From contig NC_086097.1 of NCBI RefSeq assembly GCF_963921235.1, positions 117,492,001 through 117,556,000 of the forward strand: 64,000 nt of DNA. The letters are read 5' to 3'. This document shows, in pieces, positions 1 through 59,701 of this stretch (the first letter of the stretch is position 1; each line of letters opens with the position of its first letter). The position numbers and the translations under genes were made by a program. A model generated the notes under the pieces. It searched no databases, was not told the origin of the DNA, and saw only the letters and a program-made list of their open reading frames with translations. This DNA comes from Mobula hypostoma. Lineage: Eukaryota.

Positions 1-1821
1 TGTCTGGAATTAGTTATTTGTATATTCTTGGCATTTCGGAAAGAAGATTTATGAAGGTTACTTGAATCTTTTATTGAGAAGCTAATGAAAGAAGATAAAG
101 GAGAGTTGTTCGTTATTGCATAGTTTTTTTTGGAAAGAAGATTTATGGTTCAAGTATGACTGTTTAAATGGTTACTCAGACACTCAACTGAGAAAAAGAA
201 GATAGAGGGACTTGTCCTTTTAACCTAATATTTGGTTTGATGTCTTTTTTTCTTAATTAATTAATCAGTAGTTTTTCCTACTAATGGGGCTTTTTATATA
301 TTTAGGTGAGGGTTTAATTACTTATGTTATTATGTATTGGTATTTTTGGAAATCTAGCATGGTTTAACATGTTATTAATTTTTTTTTCTGCTTTATTATA
401 GCATCTTATAATTGAATTTAAAGTTTTTTTTAGAGACAAAATGTTAAACCTAAAAATGGCACTGGTTTTTCTCTTTAAGAGAGAACATTATTATGCTGGA
501 ACATAAACACTTTCCTTTGCTAAGACTTCATCATTCGTTTCACAAGGTCAGTCGTTTTTTTTTACTGAGGAGTTAAATCTTTCTCCTGAGCAGACTGAGC
601 AGCCCCTGGCTTTGTATTCTATCTAGTCTGCTAGCCTTTTTCAGGCTTTTGGGAGGAGGTGGGGTTAGAGTTAGGAATTTTTTCCCATTGGGAGGTTCTG
701 GAGTATGCTTGTTTTTTATGTGTTTGTATTCTTCACCACTGCCATTTTTGATCATCCCGTATTGGTATGTGCTCTGCGCGTGTGTAAAGTAGAATAAAAT
801 TATAATATGGTATTTAAACGGATTAATGTAATAAGTTGGAATGTACGTGGTTGGAATCATCTTATCAAACAAAAATAGACTTTTAAAATTATTATCCGAT
901 TCCAACCTGATATAATTTTGGCTCAAGAGACACATATCAGGGCGGGAGATCAAAATAGATTTTTTGGATGGTAGAAAGATTTGCAGTTCCACTCCACTTC
1001 TCAGAGTAAGACTAAAGACGTGTCCATCTTCATTAAATCTAGTATATTTATTCAAGAAGATATTCAGTGAGATTCTAATGGTAGATTTTTAATTGTTAAA
1101 GGAGTGATCTGTAACAGAAAAGTTGTTGTAATAGATGTAAAACTGAGACATTTACACTGACACACATGTTTTGGTCTTGCTCTATACTGGAACAGCTCTG
1201 GAAGTCAGTTTTTTGACCATTTCTAAAGTACTTAAAATTAATTTACAACCTAACAAATTAACTGTGCTTTCTGGAATAATTCCTCAAAATATCCATGGTA
1301 TCTCTATGTCTGACCAACATGTTATTGCATTTGTTACATTGACAGCTAGGAGGGCCATTTTGTCGAAGCGAAAGGATACAACGGCTCCCACTTTGTTACA
1401 ATGGTTCTCTCAATGATGCTATATCTTAGTTTGAAGAAAATTAGAAGTTGAGTCTTTGAACCTGTGTTTGATTTTGAGAAAAGATGGGGTTCATTTGCTC
1501 ATTATTATCATTTGAGTTAATTGATGGATTCTCCATGATCTAATTGTAAATTTTTTGGTACTTTTTTTTTGTTGGCGGTTTGATGTTTATCTTTAGAAGC
1601 TTCATGTATAACGCATGGCTCTGGGGTTGAACACTTAATGGGGTTTTTCTTTTTTCCAACTTCTCTTGCTTAGTAGGGTTTTTTTTCATCACAAAATTTT
1701 TTCAATCTTTATATAATGTTTTTTTTCTTGAGATATTGTAAGTGTTGCTTACTTCGATGTACTCGTGTTTATTTTGGAAAAAAATTAATAAAAAGATTTG
1801 AAAAGAAAAAGAAAAACAAAA
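1..1821 (+). mobile_element. L1-clade LINE remnant with large internal deletion (EN N-terminus joined to Cys-rich C-terminus)
   Basis: 807: MVFKRINVISWNVRGWNH..ILAQETH (APE endonuclease start), then GRFLIVKG. At ~1130 it jumps to CNRCKTETFTLTHMFWSC (ORF2 C-terminal zinc-knuckle region). T-rich 3'UTR, AATAAA and A-rich tail ~1786-1821. Confidence 0.8.
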
Positions 1822-1941
1822 GAGATGGCATAAAATAAAGCAAACATTAGAGGGAAGTTAGATGATTGGGAACCTCTTAAAATCCAAAAGAAGGCAACTA
1901 AAAATTTATAAGGAGGGAAAAGATGAGATAAGAAGGTAAGC
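1822..1941 (+). mobile_element. Short CR1 ORF2 fragment
   Basis: Similar to the CR1 linker segment at 13820-13930 (..NKAKISxKxxDWExFxNxQxATK..). Confidence 0.6.
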
Positions 1942-2089
1942 GGGTGGCAGTAGTGCACATGCATATGGATTTGACGTGTTTGGTCAGTGCTCCTCTCCCA
2001 GACCGAGATAAGATTACTATTATACCGTGTTTTATTCATTCATAGGCCAACAGTGCATGTCTAAACTAAGTGTCTGGAAAACTTTGACA

Positions 2090-2945
2090 ATGCCAAAGGC
2101 AAATAAAGCCAAGACCGCCGACTGCCAAACTACCGAAGTTAGTGCGAACCACGGGTCTGTAAAGCACTTCTCTGCGTCTGAGATACCGCCGGATAAAACT
2201 TATGCCATGTGCAAGGAATTAGGTCAGGCGATTTCTCAGTCAGTTCTGCGCGGCATTAATGACTGCTTTGATGTTTTTGAGACCAAGTTTGAGGTGCTTG
2301 TGGACTCCGAGGCTGACTTACAAGCCCGTGTGGCTAATCAAGAACTAACCACCAGAGACCTTGAAACACATGTGCAAGAGCTTGCAATTAAGTATTCAGA
2401 GCTAATGAGGTAAAATAGCCAGCTTGAAGCTAAAGTGCATGACTTAGAGGCTCATTCCTGGAGACATAATATTAAGATTGTAGGGACACAAGAGGGCGAG
2501 GAGGATGGTAAACCTACTGAATTTGTTTCCAGACAGATTCCCAAGTTGCTCAGGGAAGATAATTTCCCGTATCCAGTTAAAGTTGATCGTACGCATCACT
2601 CTCTCTATCCAAAGCCGGCTGCCGGTGCTAAACCGCGCACCATCTTGGCACATATCCATCGCTTTCAAGTGAAAGAGCTGATCCTGCGCCGCAGCAGATT
2701 ACAACCCATGGAGTACAAGGGAAATAAGCTCTTGATCTTCCCGGACTATACTAAAGAGGTGATGACTCAACGTCGTGCCTTTCGTGATGTACTGCAAACT
2801 CTGCACGATGGAAGAATCAAGCACACACTGCGGTTCCGGCTAGGCTCTATATTTATCATCAAGATGGAAGAGCGCCTAAAGTATACGGCGATCTGATAGA
2901 AGCAGTACAATTCTTGGAAAGGAATAATGCACGGAAGAGGGAGTA
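2090..2945 (+). pseudogene. L1 ORF1p (Transposase_22-like), disrupted
   Basis: Coiled-coil region, then DLEAHSWRHNIKIVG.QEGEE, VDRTHHS, PRTILA, IFPDYTKEVMTQRRAF; stop at ~2411 and a later frameshift. Confidence 0.88.
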
Positions 2946-3464
2946 GATATATTGACACTGTTTATTCAGCTTATATTTGTGCCGGTTTCCATGTTGGGAT
3001 GTGGGGAGGGACTTACTTGTGATATGTAGCTTTGCAATGCTGTATGCCGCACTGGGATTTAATTGCAGAGAATGTTCTAAATATTTTTCTTATTATAAGG
3101 GTTAAATTTGAGTTGGTGTCATGAATGCTCAGCTTCAGGTGCGGACAGTGGATAACTCTCCCCAGCCCTAATAACATTTGTTTAACGGTATTATATAATT
3201 TGTGTTATAAATTTTCTCAGAGAGGGGTTTGTGATAATTGTGTAACTTCAGTTACCTGCCCAGCAGCTCCTTTTGGGACGGAAATGGGGAACTATTTGTC
3301 TGGTTTAGGGAGACACGAAGCGGGGTGGGTTAGGGTGTGTGTTGTTCTTGTTCATAGCTCAGGCATGTTTTTTTGTGTATGTTGTGTTCTTCTGAGGCTG
3401 CCAGTTATTTTGCGTTGTTTACTATGTTTGTGCTCAACTCTAATAACCTCTCTTTTATTCTCAT

Positions 3465-4490
3465 ATGAAGAGGCCTTGCGGTAGAATACAGCTAGGGGGT
3501 AAAGATATTACAATAGTCTCGTGGAATGTTAAGGGCCTTGGTCATGTTATTAAGAGGGATAAAGTTTTTAGACATCTCAAATCTCTATCTGCAGATGTGA
3601 TTTTTCTACAGGAAACCCATATCAAAGTAACTGAGCAACGCAGATTGAGGTCTAGCTGGATATCACAGGTTTACCAGTCACCATTTACTTCTCATGCTCG
3701 TGGTGTGGCTATCCTCTTTAGGAAAAATATTCCATTTCAACTCACTTCCATGACGACAGACCCTCTCGGCAGGTTTATCATGATCCCTGGCACCATTAAT
3801 TCGTTTCCGCTAACCTTCCTTAATATTTATGGTCCAAACACAGAAGAGCCAAATTTTTTTAGGAAAGTTTTTGATTTACTTCCGGATGCCAGTAATTCAA
3901 ATCTAATAATCGGCGGTGACTTGAATTGCTACCTAGATCCATATTTAGATTGATTGTCCTCTCGCCTAGCCTCAAATATCGTGTCAGTGCAGGTCCTAAG
4001 TAATTTGATTAGATCTAGGAACTTAGTAGTTATTTGGCGGGTTCAACATCCCACTGACAAGGATTATTCTTATTATTCTCATGTTCACAAATCTTATAGT
4101 AGAATAGAATACTTTTTGATTGATTCTCATTTACTATCTTGTGTTACCAATACAAAATATTATAATAGATTAATTTCAGACCATAGCCCCTTGACAATGC
4201 CCCAAAATCTCTCCCTTTCCAAATGAATCTATTCCTGGCATTTTAACCGCTCCCTACTCACCGATAAGAAATTTATAAAATATATCACCACCAGATTAAA
4301 AGATTTTATAGAAATTAACGATAACAGTGAGGTGTCAGATTCCACACTCTGGGAGACATTAAAGGTTGTAATTCGTGGGCATATGATTTCATATGAATCC
4401 GCTGCTAAGGGGGAGAGAGGAGGGCGATTATTAGAGATTGAGAATCCTCTCCCAACCCTCGAAGCGTCATACCAGGCTTTGAAACAGATT
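3465..4490 (+). pseudogene. L1 ORF2 APE endonuclease domain, disrupted
   Basis: SWNVKGL, FLQETH, RGVAIL, NIYGPN, GGDLN, SRIEYFL, ISDHSP, LWETLKVVIRG; internal stops. Confidence 0.92.
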
Positions 4491-6148: not shown

Positions 6149-6373
6149 CATTTTTTCTTATTTCTGACCATCTCTCTTGTTATTCCTGTTATGTATTTAC
6201 TGTTTCAGTACTATTTGAGTGATCTTGTAAATATATTGTTTGGTTAGGCATTCTTTGTTGTTTACATAATTCACTGTGGTTATATATCAAAATACGTGAA
6301 TTGAATATGTCATTACATGACCACCCAATATATGTGCACGCGAAAGCAAAAACATGAAGTTAGACTCATATTC

Positions 6374-7014
6374 ATTGACTCATAGGCGGGAGGAGAAGAT
6401 AGCAGCACACTGCGTGCACGCAGCTCTCTGGTGAAAATGATATCGTATCCATTAAATAGAGACCGTGGACAATTCTGATTTGATGGAGACAGATGTGAAA
6501 GCACAGAGGAATATCTGGAGAAATTTCTGAAACGCTGGTTCACTGCCGCTGTTACTGGGCGAACGAGAATCTTCTGAAGGGAAGGCCCCAAAACCCCCAG
6601 CTTTGCCTGTTGCTGGCGACCGAGATTGAGGTCGAAGTGTTTGGATAGAGATGGTGCTCAGTACTCAGTGTCAGAGGGCTGATCAGAGGCTCGCAGTTTT
6701 CAGATGACTCAGAGTCGGACTGTGGTCGGGCATGGCAGGGAGAGTTTTCTTCCTTCTCCCATCTGCGTGAGATGTGGGACATTCGAGAGACTTTAAACTT
6801 TTTTACTGTGCCATGGCCTGTTCTTCAAGTTATGGTATTGTTGCACTGCTGTAACTATATGTTATAATTATGTGGTTTTGTTAGTTTTTTCAGTCTTGGT
6901 CTGTCCTGTGTTTTGTGATATCACACCAGAGGCATATTGTATCATTTCTTAATACATGTATTACTAAATGACAATAAAAGAGGACTGTGTGTCCTCATAA
7001 TCTAATCTAATCTA
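6374..7014 (+). mobile_element. Non-autonomous retroposon with (TCTAA)n tail, inserted in the Gypsy 5' LTR
   Basis: Flanked by TSD ATATTC (6368-6373 and 7015-7020); homologous copies at 38131 and 39614. Confidence 0.85.
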
Positions 7015-7298
7015 ATATTCCCAGACACCTGTGTCTTCCTTTGAATTGATGTAATGTTTTGAAGTTACAAAACATAACAGTGGTGACAAAATATTTTAGA
7101 ATGAACTTGAGATGGCTACCGATCTATTGAAGCTCAGTGAGACGTTCATCTTCAAAGAAAAGCACATTGAGAAATGACGAGTGAAAAACAGCCTGACATG
7201 TGCAGAGAGTTGAGTTATAAAAAGGCAGCAAACTAAAGAATTCATGGGTTCATAAACATTGAATACTGAGTGATAATAATCATTTTAACAAAGCAGAA

Positions 7299-8467
7299 AT
7301 GACTGGCTGCATTGGAAAGTTAGACACATCTGATTACTCAACAGATAACTGGATTTTACATACTGAGCAACTTGAACAGGATTTTGATGCAAATAAAATA
7401 GCCAATGAGAAACAAGAACCAATTTTGCTGAGTCCATTGGGCTTGAAGGCATACAGTTTTGCATCGAAATTTAACTACTCCATCCGAACCATCCAAAACG
7501 AGTTTTGCTGATCTTGCGAAAGTGATGCAGGAACATTTAGAATCAAAGCCTTTGCTTTAGGTTTCATAAATGGATTCAAAAAGGAGGGGTATCCATTTCA
7601 GTCTACACAACTGAATTGAAAAGATTGTGCATTGTCAGCTCTGTATTGGGTTTAATGATGCGCTGAGAGATTGTTTTGTGTGTGGAATCCAACAAGAAAA
7701 CATTCAAAAATGGCTCCAAATTGATGCACAACTTACATTTAGAAGAAGAATTGAAATAGTTGTTTCTATGGAAACAGCAACCAGAGACAAAATTGATTTG
7801 CAGTCAGGAATAAAAGTGAGCATGAACAAAATTGCAACATCTGCACAGAAACTGACCTGGCTAAAACAAATTGTGTTACTGTTGTGGCAGGGGCTCACAT
7901 ACACCAACCCAATGCAAATTTAAAGGCAAAACTTGTATAAAATGTAACAAAGTAGGACACAAACAAACAGTATGTCGGGCAAACAAAAATAAGAGTGACA
8001 CATAGCCCTGAGATTTACAATGTGAAAACTAACAATAGACAACCAACATGCTTTACAGCAGAAGAGAAGGCAAATTAATTGAAATGGATTTGGACACTGG
8101 TTTGGCTGTTTCAGTCATTTAACAAAATGAGTTTGAATGGCATTTCAAAGATGCCAAACTGAAGACTGGAGCCATCCAATTAAGAACTTGTACTGAAGAA
8201 AAGTTAAATCCTGTGGGAATAACAATATCAATGAAATACAACAACCAACAAGCCTCATTGAGCTTGTATGCAGAAAAAACAGAAGGGACAGCATTGTGGG
8301 GGCATGATTAGCTGAGACAAGTGCTACTTGCTTGGAGATCCATCCACCAATTGCATGTCACATCCCCTGCAATGAAGCCAGCTGAAAGCGAATTAAGAAA
8401 AGCACTGGATGATGCCAAAACTGTCTCCATGCTCTACACCATGAACCTAAGCTAACAAAGGGAAAAC
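7299..8467 (+). pseudogene. Gypsy gag and aspartic protease, disrupted
   Basis: MTGCIGKLD..DNW..TEQLEQDF.AN, ALRDCFVCGI, decayed CCHC knuckle ~7880-7975, protease MDLDTGLAVSVI ~8084-8119. Confidence 0.85.
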
Positions 8468-8469
8468 AA

Positions 8470-10245
8470 TTGTTGGTGCCAACATCTGCGCCCCTGGTTG
8501 GAAAGCATATTGGATCAATAGGCAATAGACAATAAGTGCAGGAGTAGGCCATTCGGCCCTTCGAGCCAGCACCGCCATTCACTGTGATTATGGCTGACCA
8601 TCCACAATCAGTATCCAGTTCCTGCCTTATCCCCATAACCTTTGATTCTGCTATCTTTAAGAGCTCTATCCAACTCTTTCTTGAAAGCATCCAGAGACTT
8701 GGCCTCCACAGCCTTCTGGGGCACAGCATTCCATATATCCACCACTCTCTGGGTGAAAAAGTTTTTCCTCAACTCTGTTCTAAATGGCCTACCCCTAATT
8801 CTTAAACTGTGGCCTTTGGTTCTGGACTCACTCATCAGTGGGAACATGCTTCCTGCCTCCAATGTGTCCAATCCCTTAATAATCTTACATGTTTCAATAA
8901 GATCCCCTCTCAGCCTTCTAAATTCCAGAGTATACAAGCCCAGTCGCTCCAATCTTGCAACATATGACAGTCCCGCCATCCCGGGAATTAACCTTTTGAA
9001 CCTACGCTGCACTCCCTCAATAGCAAGAATGTCCTTCCTCAAATTTGGAGACTAAAACTGCACACAATACTCCAGGTGTCGTCTCACCAGGGCCCTGTAT
9101 AGCTGCAGAAGGACCTCTTTTCTTCCCCTTGTTATGAAGGCCAGCATGCCATTAGCTTTCTTCACTGTCTGCTGTACTTGCATGCTTGCTTTCAGTGACT
9201 GATGTACAAGAACACCTGGATCTCGTTGTGCTTCCCCTTTTCCTAACTTGACTCCATTTAGATAATAATCTGCCTTCCTGTTCTTACCACCAAAGTGGAT
9301 AACCTCACATTTATCCACATTAAACTGCATCTGCCATGCATCTGCCCACTCACCCAGCCTGTCTAAGTCACCCTGCATTCTCATAACATCCTCCTCACAT
9401 TTCACACTGCCATCCAGCTTTGTGTCATCGGCAAATTTGCTAATGTTACTTTTAATTCCCTCATCTAAATCATTAATATATATTGTAAACAGCTGCGTTC
9501 CCAGGACTGAACCCTGCGGTACCCCACTGGTCACCACCTGCCATTCTAAAAGGGACTCGTTAATCGCAACTCTTTGTTTTCTGTCAGCCAGCCAATTTTC
9601 AATCCATGTCAGTACTCTGCCCCCAGTACCATTGCCCTAATTTTGCCCACTAATCTCCTACGTAGGACTTTATCAAAGGCTTTCTGAAAGTCCAGGTACA
9701 CTACATCCACTGACTCTCCCTTGTCCATTTTCATAGTTACATCATCAAAAAATTTCCAGGATCGTGCTCAGAGGAATCGTGAAAGTGGTGAAAGCAGTGG
9801 TTTGACTGTGACAATTTCTGTAGGCAACATATCTGAGAAAGCTTCTGATATGTTAATCAGGCAGTTACTTGCTGAATTGATTTTAAGCTGGAAGAGAAGT
9901 TCAAGGAGCTTCAGGAAAGTTGCAAGCATTCAGCTGCTGTGAGTATAAAGAGCTAGAATCCAGTCTATGTGCATTAAACTTATTGCATGAACTTCAAGTG
10001 GGAGATAAAAGGCTGCTTGTAAAAGTACATGTACAGACCAACACCCAGCTGGATGAATGGAAGGTCAAAAAGAAAGGAGTCAATGGAGGTACGAAAACAG
10101 AGAATTCGTCAGATTATGTTGGGGAAACCAGGAGGAAAGATCAGATCGTAAAGGGAGCAATAAGAGAATAATCCAGTGAACTCAATTCACCTTCCCAAGA
10201 TCAAGATACACAAACTAGAAGAAGAAAACGGAAGGAGAAGAAAAA
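8470..10245 (+). pseudogene. RBM25: Processed (intron-less) fragment of RNA-binding protein 25, RRM region; split by the CR1 at 8518-9747
   Basis: 8470-8517 LLVPTSAPLVGKHIGS; 9748-10245 ESSGLTVTISVGNISEKASDMLIRQLLA..LSWKR/VQGASGKLQAF.CCEYKELES.L.AL.LLHELQVGDKRLLVKV...T.TQLDEWK.KKK...ETRRKDQIVKGAI..SSELNSPSQ..RRRKRKEKK. Matches vertebrate RBM25 as recalled; has a frameshift, small deletions and a stop. Confidence 0.92.
8518..9747 (-). mobile_element. CR1 LINE, 5'-truncated (RT C-half and 3'UTR)
   Basis: SGVPQGSVLG, KFADDTKL, HLEYCVQF, LEFRRLRGDLIE, FFTQRVV; short CTATTG-type tail; ATCAA at both junctions. Confidence 0.95.
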
Positions 10246-10969
10246 CATCTAGAACTGTCAGAACAATCCTGCAGTCTTGGAATCAGCTGCTACAACCACC
10301 ACACAGGAGGCCTCAGATCCTGAGATTGCTTCGCAGAGTAATCCCCTTGCCAGGAAAGATGTCACTCCACAAGAATATCAAGTCCTCCACAGCAACTAAA
10401 TCTTTTCACCTGAATGAGACAATTTAAAATTTACTATGCTGTGGTTGTCTATATTTAGTAGTCGTAGTATATAGTTTACTGTGTGTATAGTTGAGATGCA
10501 CTCTCCATTGAGCTGGAGTTTATAATGAAGCAGAGAGGAGCGTTGTGTATTTACTAACTCAGTAATTCTTGAGTAATCTTGTAAAAATCTTGTTTATGAT
10601 TCACTGCTGTTCATATGATTCATTGTGGTAATATGTAGAAGTATGAGAATTGCATACATCATCACACTACCATGTGTTACATGTGCACCTCAGTTAAAGT
10701 AAATCATGAAGTTAGATTCACATTCCCAGACTCCCATTAGTTTAATGCTTTGAAGTTACAAAACATAACAAATCCAATTGTAGCAAAATACAAATTAACT
10801 ATTTGTTATATGTTGTTTTCATGCAATGTTCTTCAAGGGGAACGCAACCAATACATAAGCCACACATGTTATAACCTTTCATTAATAATGAAAAGGGGAC
10901 AAAGGAAAATAAAATTTAAAAAAAATACTATCCAGCATCTGTGAAATTTATTTTGAAGGAAAACTTCTA

Positions 10970-16595: not shown

Positions 16596-18273
16596 TGTCA
16601 TGGTCTGGTCCATGAAGTCCACATTCCGGTTCACGGTCCGGTCTGTGGACTCAGGACTCCGGGTCTTCCAGCTGTCCCTTGTTTTGATTGAGTTAATTAT
16701 AGGCACCTGGTTCCCATCTTGGGGATTGGAATATAAGTAGTCTTGGGGTGGAGTGTGGGTGGCTGGTTTGTCTTGTCAAGATCCCCTGGGAGCAACCTGC
16801 TGGTGGAAGGTTGGAACGGCCACTTGCTATCTTTAGGCAGCATTGGGGAACCATCCCCTCATGGAGCCTAGCTGTCAGTAGTTGGAGCTGTCTTTGCGAT
16901 ATGGATTTGGCAGTTTCCTGGGCCAGCTGAGTGGCTGCCAGCCACTCCGAGCTAGGTAGGGATCCAGCTGTTTCCATAGCCAGCTGAGATTGCTGGCCAA
17001 ACTGAGACTCGGAGCTACCCTGAAGCAAAGATGGAACAGTCTGCTGTTCTTTGGTGTTTGTCTTTTCTTGTCCTCGCCTCCATGGGGTAAGTCAGGCTGT
17101 TTTGCCGTTGCCCTGCGGGGGGATCTGTCTTGTCCTCACCTCCATGGGATAAGTCAGGCCTTTCTGCTGTTGCCCTGCGGGGGTCTTGTCTTGTCTTGTC
17201 CCCGCCTCCGTGGGGTAAGTCAGGCCGTTTTGCTATTGCCCTGCCAGGGGATATGTCTTGATTTGTCTTTGCCTCTGTTGGGTAAGTCTGGCCGTTCTGC
17301 CATTACCCAACAGGTGGACCTGTCCCACCTTAGTGTGGAGATAAAGTTGAGTCCCAGCTAGTCTATGGATGAGTCCCGGCTCTATGTCTATGTTCTGTCC
17401 AGTCTTATGTTAGTGTTGTGTTAAAGATGAGTCCCAGCTTTTCGAAGGATAAGTCCTGAGTTATCAGCCTCTGCATTCCAAGACCCCTGCTCCCAGCCTG
17501 ACTCCAAGTTCAAGAGCCAAGACCCCAGCCTGTCTCCAAGTTCAAGAGCAAAGACCCCAGCCTGTCTCCAAGTTCGAGAGCCAAGAACCCAAACCTCAAG
17601 GACCCGAAGCCAAGCTCCAAGAACCCAAGCCTCGAGAACCACAAGCCAAGCTCCAAGAACCCATGCCTCGAGGACCCCAAGCCAAACTCCAAGAACATAA
17701 GCTTCGAGGACCCCAAGCCAAGCTCCAAGAACACAAGCCTCGGGGACCCCAAGCCAAGCTCCAAGAACACAAGCCTCGGGGACCCCAAGCCAAGCTCCAA
17801 GAACACAAGCCTCGAGGACCCCAAGCCAAGCTCCAAGAACACAAGCCTCGAAGACACCAAGCCAACCTCCAAGCCTCAAGACCAAGGCCCCAGCCTGCAA
17901 CCAAGCTCAAGACCCAAGGCCCCAGCCTGCAGCCAAGATCAAGACCTAAGAGCAAAGACCCCAGCCTGTCTCCAAGCTCAGGCCTCTGGACCTCAGCCAC
18001 GTCCTGTCCTGTAGCGCTGTCATGTCCTTGCCTGGTTCTGGTTTCCGAGGCCGAGGCAAGACCCAGTTTCTGGGTCCTTGTCCAGTCTCGGGCTCGGAGT
18101 CGAAGCCTTGTCTCCTAGTCCATGGTTTCTAGTTCTGGTCCCGCTTTCCCTAGCCCAAGTCCCTGCTCCTTGCCTGTATCTTGTCACGTCCCCACTCTAG
18201 TCAAGTCCTGTTCCTTGTACTTCAGTGTCTGTGTCTCACATTTAGGTCCGCTACCAGCGCCCCCTTTGTGACA
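16596..18273 (+). mobile_element. Long solo LTR containing internal tandem repeats
   Basis: Begins TGTCA, ends TGACA; flanks GTTGG/CTTGG (5-bp TSD, 1 mismatch); TATA-like AATATAAG ~16731; no gag/pol motifs. Confidence 0.8.
17480..17980. repeat. Tandem array of ~33-bp and 36-bp units within the LTR
   Basis: Unit CCCCAAGCCAAGCTCCAAGAACACAAGCCTCG(A/G)GGA (12-aa periodicity in the ORF track), flanked by AAGACCCCAGCCTG units. Confidence 0.9.
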
Positions 18274-38130: not shown

Positions 38131-38774
38131 TCAAAAGGCGGGAGAAGGAGATGGCAGCGGGACGCAGCGCCCACAGCTCTTCGGCGAAATGATATTGTAT
38201 CTATTAAGTAGGGGCTGTGGACAATTCTGATTTGATGGAGACAGACGTGAAAGCACAGAGGAACATCTGGAGAAATTTCTGAAATGCCGGTTCACTGCCG
38301 CTGCTACTGTGCGATCGAGAATCTTCCGGAGGGAAGGCCCCAAAATCCCCCGCTTTGCCTGCTGCTGGCGACCGAGACTGAGATCGGAGAGTTCGGATAG
38401 AGATGGTGCTCGGTACTCGGTGTCAGAGGGCTGATCGGAGCTCGAAGTTTTCGGATGACTCAGAGTCGGACTGTGGTCGGGCATGGCATGGAGAATTTTC
38501 TTCCTTCTCCCGTCTGCGTAAGATGTGGGACTTTCGAGAGACTTTGATCTTTTTTACTGTGCCATGGCCTGTTCTTCATCAAGTTATAGTATTGTTGCAC
38601 TGTTGTAACTATATGTTATAATTATGTGATTTTTGTTAGTTTTTCAGTCTTGGTCTGTCCTGTGTTTCTGTGATATCACACCGGAGGAATATTGTATCAT
38701 TTCTTAATGCATGCAGTCCTCTTTGTCATTTAGTAATGCATGCATTAAGAAATGACACAATCTAATCTAATCTT
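38131..38774 (+). mobile_element. (TCTAA)n-tailed non-autonomous retroposon
   Basis: Homologous to 6374-7014 over its length. Confidence 0.88.
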
Positions 38775-39224: not shown

Positions 39225-40330
39225 AGGTTCAAAATAAATTTATTATCAAAGTATGTAAATGTCACAATATACAACCCTGTGATTCATTTCCCTCCAACCA
39301 TTTACATTAGAACAAAAAAAATACAATAGACTTAATGAAAAAACTACACACAAAGATGGACAAACAGCCAATGTGCAAAATAAAGCACACTGTGCAAAGA
39401 CAAACCGAATGTAATAAATCAATAATACAGAGGACATGAATTGTCGAGTGCTTGAAAGTCAGTCCATAGGTTGTAGAGTTAGTTCAATGTTGAGGTGAGA
39501 GAAATAATCCACACTTGTTTAGGAGCCGGATGGTTGAAGGGTAATAACTGTTCCTGAACCTGATGGTGTGGGGCTCCTGAACCTTCTTCCTGATGGCAGT
39601 AGCAAAAAGAGAGATTTAGATTATGAAGACATGTAGTCCTCTTTTATTGTCATTTAGTAATGCATGCATTAAGAAATGATACATTATTTCCTCCGGTGTG
39701 ATATCACAAAACACAGGACAGACCAAGAGGGAAAAAACTGACAAAACCACATAATTATAACATATAGTTACAAACAGTGCAACAGTATCATAACTTGATG
39801 AAGAAGTCCATGAGCACAGTAGAAGTTCAAAGTCTCTCAAATGTCCCACATCTCACGCAGATGGGAGAAGGAAGAAAAACTTTCCCTGCCATGCCGACCA
39901 CAGTCCGACTTTGAGTCATCCGAAAACTTCGAGCTCTGATCAGCTCTCCGACACCGAGTACTGAGCGCCATCTCTGTCCGAACATTTCAACCTCAACCTT
40001 GGTCACCAACAGCAGGCAAAGCCGGGGATTTTGAGGCCTACCCTCCGAAAGATTCCCAACCACGCAGTAACGACAGCAGCGAACGAGCATTTCAGAAATT
40101 TCTCCAGATGTTCCTCTGTGCTTTCACGTCCATTCTCCATCAAATCAGAATTTTCCACGGCCCCTATTTAACAGATATGATATCATCATCAGATGATGGG
40201 GGACCTGATGATGGATGCCACTTTCTTGTGGCAGAGCTCGTTATAGATGTGCCAAATGGTTGAAAGTGCTTTTCCTATGATGGACTGGGCTGTACCCAAC
40301 ACTTTTTGTAGGGTTTCCTATTCTTGGACA
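39225..40330 (-). mobile_element. Rex1/Babar-like 3' end interrupted at 39614-40185
   Basis: Same 3'UTR family as 25037 and 26160; coding remnant resumes ~40190. Confidence 0.75.
39614..40185 (-). mobile_element. (TCTAA)n-tailed non-autonomous retroposon, slightly 5'-truncated
   Basis: Reverse-complement homologue of the 6374 and 38131 copies. Confidence 0.88.
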
Positions 40331-59187: not shown

Positions 59188-59701
59188 CAGTGTCCAGTAG
59201 AAACATGACCCTGGGCTGTGCTCCTTCCCAGCTCACCCTTTGTGGAGTCTGCAGTGTCCAGTAGAAACATGACCCCGGGCTGTGCTCCTTCCCAGCTCAC
59301 CCTTTGTGGAGTCTGCAGTGTCCAGTAGAAGCATGACCCCGGGCTGTGCTCCTTCCCAGCTCACCCTTGGTGGAGTCTGCAGTGTCCAGTAGAAGCATGA
59401 CCCCGGGCTGTGCTCCTTCCCAGCTCACCCTTTGTGGAGTCTGCAGTGTCCAGTAGAAACATGACCCCGGGCTGTGCTCCTTCCCAGCTCACCCTTTGTG
59501 GAGTCTGCAGTGTCCAGTAGAAACATGACCCCAGGCTGTGCTCCTTCCCAGCTCACCCTTTGTGGAGTCTGCAGTGTCCAGTAGAAACATGACCCCGGGC
59601 TGTGCTCCTTCCCAGCTCACCCTTTGTGGAGTCTGCAGTGTCCAGTAGAAGCATGACCCCGGGCTGTGCTCCTTCCCAGCTCACCCTTTGTGGAGTCTGC
59701 A
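59188..59701. repeat. 64-bp minisatellite, 8 copies
   Basis: Unit CAGTGTCCAGTAGAA(A/G)CATGACCCCGGGCTGTGCTCCTTCCCAGCTCACCCTTTGTGGAGTCTG starting at 59188, 59252, 59316 ... 59636. Confidence 0.97.

Follow-up and report, generated by a model that had tools for sequence, protein, structure and literature searches.

A decayed Gypsy subfamily in a ray genome carries spliced RBM25 sequence in place of its reverse transcriptase, RNaseH and integrase

Introduction

How does part of a host splicing-factor transcript come to lie between the LTRs of a retrotransposon, exactly where the element's own enzymes belong, and did it serve the element that took it up? This question is raised by positions 6187-10770 of a 64,000-nucleotide stretch of the Mobula hypostoma genome (the window), which a preliminary description, made from the sequence alone, read as a Gypsy provirus that had captured RBM25 mRNA. 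We find that this locus is an old, dead member of a Gypsy subfamily that carries spliced RBM25, and that the capture was both longer and far more widely propagated than the window copy by itself indicates.

Anatomy of the element

The LTR, gag, protease, polypurine tract and LTR order proposed for the element was confirmed by LTR alignment and by the match of its gag-protease part to the intact Gypsy gag-pol protein P0083. The 5' LTR (6187-7079, plus strand, TGTT...AACA) and the 3' LTR (10541-10770, plus strand, beginning with CG rather than TG) align as one pair with a K2P distance of 0.258 over 196 aligned sites, as a single element demands. The 5' LTR itself is about 245 bp; what makes it long is solely a separate, unrelated repeat of about 650 bp nested in it (6374-7020, plus strand), which ends in (TAATC)n and has two further copies in the window (38136-38761 and 39616-40186); the motif ATATTC is present at both its ends and is likely its own target-site duplication (TSD). 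The element itself is flanked by the expected 5-bp TSD, ATTCC at 6182-6186 and AATCC at 10771-10775, identical at 4/5 positions. A primer-binding site does lie directly after the 5' LTR, as described earlier, at 7081-7091 (plus strand), in decayed form with 7/11 matches to the tRNA-Ser complement. The corresponding tRNA 3'-end pattern has 14 genomic matches, and as all four that were scanned are Ser(GCT), the site likely served tRNA-Ser(GCT).

P0083 has the domain order protease-RT-RNaseH-integrase, as in Ty3/Gypsy, with its protease at residues 297-383. In the window, 7299-8425 aligns by tblastn to residues 1-419 of this protein and to no residue past that, in agreement with the reported loss of RT and integrase. 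The gag region (7299-8085, plus strand) is broken by stops and frameshifts, as is the aspartyl protease and linker region (8086-8412, plus strand; LDTG at 8090-8101), and every copy examined is decayed; the window copy is indeed disabled. Near the 3' end, a pol C-terminal tail and 3' untranslated stretch (10244-10527, plus strand), which integrase immediately precedes in pol-bearing siblings, is followed by the polypurine tract (10528-10540, plus strand). In place of RT, RNaseH and integrase there is RBM25 sequence, which runs across exon junctions of its parent gene, itself located in this genome. An Rfam search of the whole window gave no matches.

The insert is spliced RBM25 cDNA

The best protein match of the window insert has 75% identity (E 9e-33), and all of its 79 protein matches are RBM25 where named; a PDB search returned only weak RRM matches (E 0.05 or worse). 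The RBM25 pieces fall on five distinct exons of the parent, spaced 2-5 kb from one another, at G000:C1:99.819-99.833 Mb. These exons have AG/GT borders in the parent and are joined without introns in the element (five of them in the window copy, nine in the long ones), so that the insert crosses parental junctions rather than falling within one exon. The parental gene was missed by a PWI family search and recovered by a protein search.

Piece 1 of the cDNA (8420-8518, plus strand) contains the last bases of exon E3, a 48-nt cassette exon (8423-8469) and the start of E4, while piece 2 (9761-10212, plus strand) contains the remainder of E4 together with E5, E6 and E7, which encode the RRM and the following helix. 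Between them lies a 5'-truncated LINE on the minus strand (8519-9760; RT, RVT_1 E 1e-12), inserted later within E4 and without a TSD, which by resemblance we take to be of CR1/L2 type; it is absent from this E4 site in 29/29 other copies. A remnant of the start of E9 (10213-10234, plus strand) was left by two internal deletions, from E7 to E9 and then from E9 to E10. The preliminary description was thus right that sense RBM25 cDNA is present, and its bounds need revision: the insert begins at 8413-8423, some 50 nt upstream of 8470, a start that omitted the captured cassette exon; 9748-9758 is LINE rather than RBM25 sequence, because the LINE runs from 8519 to about 9760; and 10213-10234 comes from the further exon E9, not from E7. 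A joint from 8518 to 9765 in other runs was dismissed as support for the chimera, since the two sequences that it joins lie within the same parental exon.

The longest copies extend from the tip of E3 to the start of E10, giving nine exons in the original capture, and the window copy is a short form with two deletions that was subsequently split by the antisense LINE. Most copies, the window copy included, have lost the purine-rich E8-E9 through a nested deletion series: of 40 copies for which the 5' junction was the sole criterion of choice, 37-40 retain E4-E6 and 5 retain E8. The earlier account therefore under-called the case, which concerns a large subfamily and a capture longer than the window shows.

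Both ends of the insert lie at microhomologies

At the 5' switch point (8413-8419, plus strand), the pol linker and the end of E3 have 7 nt in common; at the 3' switch point (10235-10243, plus strand), 9 nt, GAGAAGAAA, are shared by E10 and the integrase tail, which places the short match previously suspected near 10235. These lengths are the modes in comparisons with pol copies (7 nt in 11/23 and 9 nt in 7/20), and random joins would match over such lengths with P 7e-4 and 7e-5, respectively. Entry into RBM25 occurs at one identical position in 47/50 anchored chimeric copies, the other three being deleted across it (counted by eye; 9/59 chimeric copies could not be anchored), and 23/25 pol-type copies run on into pol at this point. 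The 5' join keeps RBM25 in frame with the gag-protease linker, as the suggested gag-pro-RRM fusion requires.

A large, dispersed, non-autonomous subfamily

The exact chimeric 5'-junction 20-mer occurs 208 times genome-wide, compared with 509 occurrences of the exact pol-type junction and none of the controls. Corrected for decay of the junction 20-mer, which is assumed to proceed at the rate of internal 20-mers, this gives an estimate of ~1,800 chimeric copies (range 1,400-4,200); summed contig depth was set aside as a copy-number measure. Chimeras make up ~29% of the family's protease-linker junctions. They are dispersed over many contigs and both strands, and the identical junctions at sites with different TSDs provide the sign of mobilisation that had been sought. 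In the 14/40 copies with both ends placed, the 5-bp flanks agree at 47/70 positions versus 17.9 in shuffles (2000 shuffles, maximum 31), the 26 copies without one or both placeable LTR ends falling outside the test; in the same 14 copies, agreement of 4-bp and 6-bp flanks is no higher than in shuffles. Residues 425-1240 of P0083, comprising RT, RNaseH and integrase, are matched by 0/59 chimeric copies. The pol-bearing siblings, now decayed, have this region and share protease, tail and LTR with the chimeras, being of the same family and age. Dispersal, common structure, locus-specific TSDs and retained cis signals identify the chimeras as a non-autonomous LTR retrotransposon subfamily.

The protease tree is star-like, with chimeric copies scattered among pol-type ones; it has 15 label changes, none of 200 bootstrap trees has a single change, and support is weak throughout. 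Because this tree gives no chimera clade, the case for a single origin is built on the common junctions and on 21 alignment columns in the RBM25 part at which most copies differ from the parent. Spliced copies were found in three other organisms, one of which shares the window's very insertion. Chimeric proteins were also sought elsewhere: the best 150 protein matches include 149 new representatives, of which none resembles gag-pol, and a 220-aa 'RBM25-like' protein of Heptranchias was rejected as a chimera, since the cassette exon that forms its N-terminus belongs to the normal gene. Absolute dating was set aside, the sole rate in hand (7e-10 per generation, as given in PMC10587355) being a per-generation value from another species.

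Origin of the chimera

We consider it very probable that a spliced RBM25 mRNA replaced RT-RNaseH-integrase, likely through two template switches, and that the product spread, likely with the enzymes of intact siblings. As read from the anatomy of the copies, one RBM25 mRNA would have been co-packaged in a particle, where reverse transcriptase may have switched to this template within E10, at the 9-nt match, and gone back to the element within E3, at the 7-nt match. The resulting hybrid would have retained all cis signals along with gag-protease and, although non-autonomous, could have been mobilised in trans, the GA-rich tract being deleted over repeated rounds of copying. The double template switch and transducing element envisaged in the preliminary description are thus supported by splicing, microhomologies and TSDs, from which the switching itself is deduced. 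The captured RRM was most likely a passenger, despite being in frame.

The same origin would also accommodate a Gag-protease-RRM fusion that was made and was helpful, for example in RNA binding or packaging, with the RRM kept by selection while the element was active. Besides the in-frame join, copy L055 has a fused ORF that still clears the Pfam RRM_1 threshold (20.9 vs 20.7 bits), the 21 columns shared against the parent comprise 20 silent changes and one replacement, the RRM exons were retained while E8-E9 were lost, and the terminal frame is the same in 17/23 short forms. Yet one join in three would be in frame by chance, GA-rich repeats tend to suffer deletions regardless, and the silent differences fit drift of a conserved parent alone (19 third-position changes vs 13.5 expected, P 0.09). 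Divergence between copies is flat across codon positions (0.155, 0.157 and 0.154), also between long and short subtypes, giving no selection signal in the RBM25 part. Among the best 150 of 5629 candidates there is no preserved copy and no functional retrogene with an intact ORF under purifying selection; these have at most 85% identity to the host protein, and their longest open frame is 381 aa, compared with >600 for the whole fusion. An apparent constraint on gag-protease (third > second position) was set aside because the in-frame filter used there tilts the outcome that way; when the analysis was repeated with less bias, the profile was flat. We therefore regard a selected fusion as unlikely. 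It is similarly doubtful that the element domesticated a host RRM within its Gag-protease polyprotein and used it to reach near a third of the family while lacking enzymes; if true, this would be a transposon domesticating a host gene, comparable to the capture of oncogenes by retroviruses, though in the service of its own replication.

Less probable still is that a LINE-made RBM25 retrocopy landed in a Gypsy copy, that deletions removed pol and the retrocopy's ends, and that the hybrid was then amplified. LINEs are abundant here, one interrupting the window copy, and deletions at short matches do happen in this Gypsy family. However, two precise deletions would be required ahead of any spread, and both insert ends are exact replacements at element-mRNA microhomologies. 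Moreover, poly(A), UTR and PWI exons, whose absence had been remarked on from the window, were found in no copy examined, nor was an insert TSD; the junction strings of anchored copies likewise contain neither TSD nor poly(A) belonging to the insert. Spread by segmental duplication or gene conversion instead of retrotransposition is highly improbable: L055 and L062, on the same contig, share 1.4 kb at 94%, but their flanks differ and the pair is elsewhere ~76% alike, locus-specific TSDs largely refute duplication, and copies lie on many contigs and both strands.

Relation to known systems

Relatives of the chimera include fish single-ORF gag-pol Gypsy elements labelled 'K02A2.6-like' (P0083, P0085), presumably the 'Mag clade', whose Gag is 57-65% identical to that of the chimera. 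They have in common the 5-bp TSD, the tRNA-Ser PBS and the protease-RT-RNaseH-integrase order (in the relative), whereas the chimeric subfamily is without RT, RNaseH and integrase.

The capture mechanism has already been published for LTR-mediated retrocopies of animals (Tan et al. 2016, PMC5131818), where, by that account, multi-site cases make up 2/9 of those with mapped sites, with 18 sites in all. The RBM25 chimera shares the features described there, namely a spliced insert that replaces part of an ORF between LTRs, microsimilarity at both switch points, and no poly(A) or TSD of its own. What is unusual is its scale, in-frame fusion and nested deletion series; compared with the cases presented in PMC5131818, the ray family has ~1,800 copies, forms such a series, is old and is shared between species. 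Maize Bs1, present in 1-5 copies with three donor genes according to the same source, is likewise an LTR element with exonic host pieces, identical switch points in all copies and a partly in-frame arrangement, but the RBM25 chimera has one donor gene, keeps gag and protease, numbers over a thousand copies and resides in a vertebrate. Pxyfem of the diamondback moth, as outlined in PMC9674220, is also a multi-copy, LTR-flanked partial cDNA with switch-point microsimilarity; its 11 W-linked tandem copies were shown to produce silencing RNAs that target the parent, whereas the ray copies are dispersed and decayed. Searches of the literature on RBM25 retrotransposons, ray or elasmobranch gypsy elements and chondrichthyan retrocopies turned up no account of the family, which Repbase or Dfam may list. 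RBM25 is absent from the main text of a 244-genome retrocopy preprint (10.64898/2026.06.26.734816) and from that of a manta genome preprint (10.64898/2026.10.27.761883; 'RBM', no matches), and the supplement of either may list it.

An LTR-captured host cDNA can therefore grow into a major vertebrate repeat family, far past the 1-11 copies of the published cases compared here. In the ~1,800 decayed copies an RBM25 transcript of ancient date survives as a fossil, its cassette-exon use included, and they record stepwise deletions in a GA-rich tract. With these copies one can test whether piRNAs elicited by the element also strike the mRNA of an essential splicing factor, and whether a captured domain is of benefit to its carrier. 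In annotations of these fish, the copies would inflate RBM25 or RRM counts.

The chimeric element and its spliced RBM25 insert

The RBM25-Gypsy chimera is real, and 6187-10770 is a single LTR element. Its 5′ LTR (6187-7079) and 3′ LTR (10541-10770) align as LTRs of one element, as the preliminary description had proposed, once a separate repeat of ~650 bp inside the 5′ LTR is set aside (K2P 0.258), and the flanks read ATTCC on the left and AATCC on the right. Within the element, 7299-8425 matches the intact Gypsy gag-pol protein P0083 over residues 1-419 (gag, protease and linker), with no match further along. RBM25 sequence (79 protein-similarity hits, best 75% identity) lies on either side of an antisense, 5′-truncated LINE with an RT domain (8519-9760). 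The fetched loci L053 and L076 also have an antisense LINE close to where the RBM25 insert region begins; being only ~65% alike to the window's LINE, they are probably independent insertions.

The parental RBM25 gene occupies the minus strand of G000:C1 (99.79-99.84 Mb), a contig of the same genome. Five of its exons, with AG/GT borders and 2-5 kb apart in the gene, match pieces that are contiguous in the element, which bears out a spliced origin across exon junctions: a 48-nt cassette exon (8423-8469), followed by E4 (interrupted by the LINE), E5, E6 and E7, in our own numbering along the parental gene. Host sequence starts ~50 nt earlier than the 8470 originally assigned. Since E8 is present in 8 of 68 loci examined and the start of E10 in four, the capture comprised nine exons, ~1.07 kb.

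The 48-nt exon, in frame at G000:C1:99832633-99832586 (L039), also occurs in Heptranchias and in one unnamed protein, and is absent from the two full-length bony-fish RBM25 proteins compared. Among the Heptranchias isoforms, the exon after it also varies, by a 12-nt extension.

Proposed switch points and reading frame

Pol-bearing siblings were identified through the tail that they share with the chimeras, that is, the C-terminal pol tail and 3′ untranslated stretch (10244-10527 in the window). Counted by eye, 47 of 50 anchored chimeras (9 of 59 were not anchored) exit the protease linker at a single position into the last bases of RBM25 E3, and 23 of 25 pol-type siblings continue into pol at that position. 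The microhomology anticipated at the proposed reverse transcriptase switch points was found at both: 7 nt common to element and E3 on the 5′ side, and the 9-nt stretch GAGAAGAAA on the 3′ side, 22 nt into E10 and immediately before the integrase tail. For random joins, P is 7e-4 for a match of at least 7 nt and 7e-5 for one of at least 9 nt.

At the 5′ join, protease linker and RBM25 share one reading frame, both in the window copy and in L055, and the natural ORF of L055 runs from the protease linker into a Pfam-positive RRM. At the 3′ join, RBM25 and the tail are out of frame with each other. Two further loci, L101 and L103, carry a second deletion form upstream of the tail, with RT and RNaseH partly kept and the integrase core lost; they re-enter the tail at the purine-rich spot that the RBM25 capture also uses, and this spot may be a switching hotspot.

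Amplification, age and nested deletions

A DNA search, in which 40 of 2788 candidates were scored, placed a protease region upstream and a pol tail or LTR downstream in 29 of 29 other fetched loci. Exact 20-mers spanning the 5′ junction number 208 chimeric and 509 pol-type (reversed controls 0), the chimeras making up about 29% of the family's junctions. Internal 20-mers were intact 11% of the time in 40 copies sampled from the first 100 listed of the 208 chimeric matches, and from these figures we estimate ~1,800 chimeric copies genome-wide (1,400-4,200 by quartiles). Among 40 copies fetched with wider flanks, both ends could be placed in 14; here the left and right 5-bp flanks agree at 47 of 70 positions, versus 17.9 in 2000 shuffles (maximum 31), and they vary between loci. 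The suspected LTR-flanked copies with identical junctions and different TSDs thus exist.

With K2P of 0.18-0.28 across twelve LTR pairs and a mean distance of 0.195 between copy pairs in the RBM25 part, the amplification burst is old. The protease tree is star-like, with chimeras and pol-bearing siblings intermixed; this fits one burst and is on its own no proof of a single origin. Two loci 2.1 Mb apart on G000:C91 (L055:2401-3798 and L062:2762-4174) are 94% alike over 1.4 kb and ~76% elsewhere, with different flanks, likely through ectopic gene conversion.

In the majority of copies, E7 is joined straight to the start of E9, followed by variable loss of the GA-rich E9. E7 and the tail lie 21-400 nt apart in 39 measurable copies, versus 493 undeleted, and most commonly 40 nt (11 copies); the window copy has the short junction and falls below the anchor score of this measurement. 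Forty junction-selected copies, covered for only 2 kb downstream and with some parts masked by later insertions, retain E4 in 39, E5 in 40, E6 in 37 and E8 in 5. From the shared deletion classes we infer several rounds of copying.

Codon-level evidence on the captured RRM

Divergence between copies and parent is highest at third positions (0.166; first 0.093, second 0.086), and 20 of 21 columns in which most copies differ from the parent are silent; the source elements therefore encoded a near wild-type RBM25 fragment. Copy-to-copy divergence is even over codon positions (0.155, 0.157, 0.154). Silent third-position changes number 19, against 13.5 predicted from parental drift since capture (P 0.09), and the codon data neither establish nor exclude selection on the RRM. 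Of 5629 candidates, 150 were scored, and none of these is a preserved copy. It is improbable that the captured RRM helped the element.

Mechanism and comparison with published cases

By the features tested, this is an LTR-mediated retrocopy that behaves as a non-autonomous element. The template-switch model of such retrocopies is established (PMC5131818), and by that model RBM25 mRNA would have been co-packaged with the element, reverse transcriptase would have made two jumps between the two templates, and pol-bearing siblings would have mobilised the chimera in trans. We regard this scheme, with the RRM as a passenger, as highly probable behind what the copies directly display (structure, splicing, microhomologies, amplification, deletion series and decay). 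The published LTR-mediated cases considered here (PMC5131818, PMC9674220) are a few fly insertions, Bs1 with 1-5 copies and Pxyfem with 11 copies. Compared with these, the RBM25 chimera has a copy number two to three orders of magnitude higher, keeps gag-protease and the captured domain in one reading frame and differs by its subtype history. A search of papers and of preprint main texts found no report of an RBM25-Gypsy chimeric family.

Occurrence in other organisms

Protein similarity places the host among the cartilaginous fishes. Sequencing runs of eight organisms share words with 6187-10770, and four runs were compared in detail. Contigs cross RBM25 exon junctions in organisms B, C and G (runs X5, X9 and X14, of kind 'DNA?' or unrecorded, each covering single-copy flank), and in B the join between protease and RBM25 is bridged by one contig. 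Because one contig of G joins the LTR end (34 letters) to the flank of this locus (50 differences in 349 letters), the window insertion is older than the split from G; B and C show the same LTR-to-flank match with 27 letters of LTR, below the 31-letter threshold.

Other repeats in the window

An unclassified repeat, ~600 bp long and ending in (TAATC)n, occurs at 6374-7020, 38136-38761 and 39616-40186, and several more times in fetched loci. GC-rich tandem arrays with periods of 62-67, 32 and 36 bp cluster at 17066-17950, and 59188-59701 holds eight copies of a 64-bp unit (98% match), a young minisatellite.
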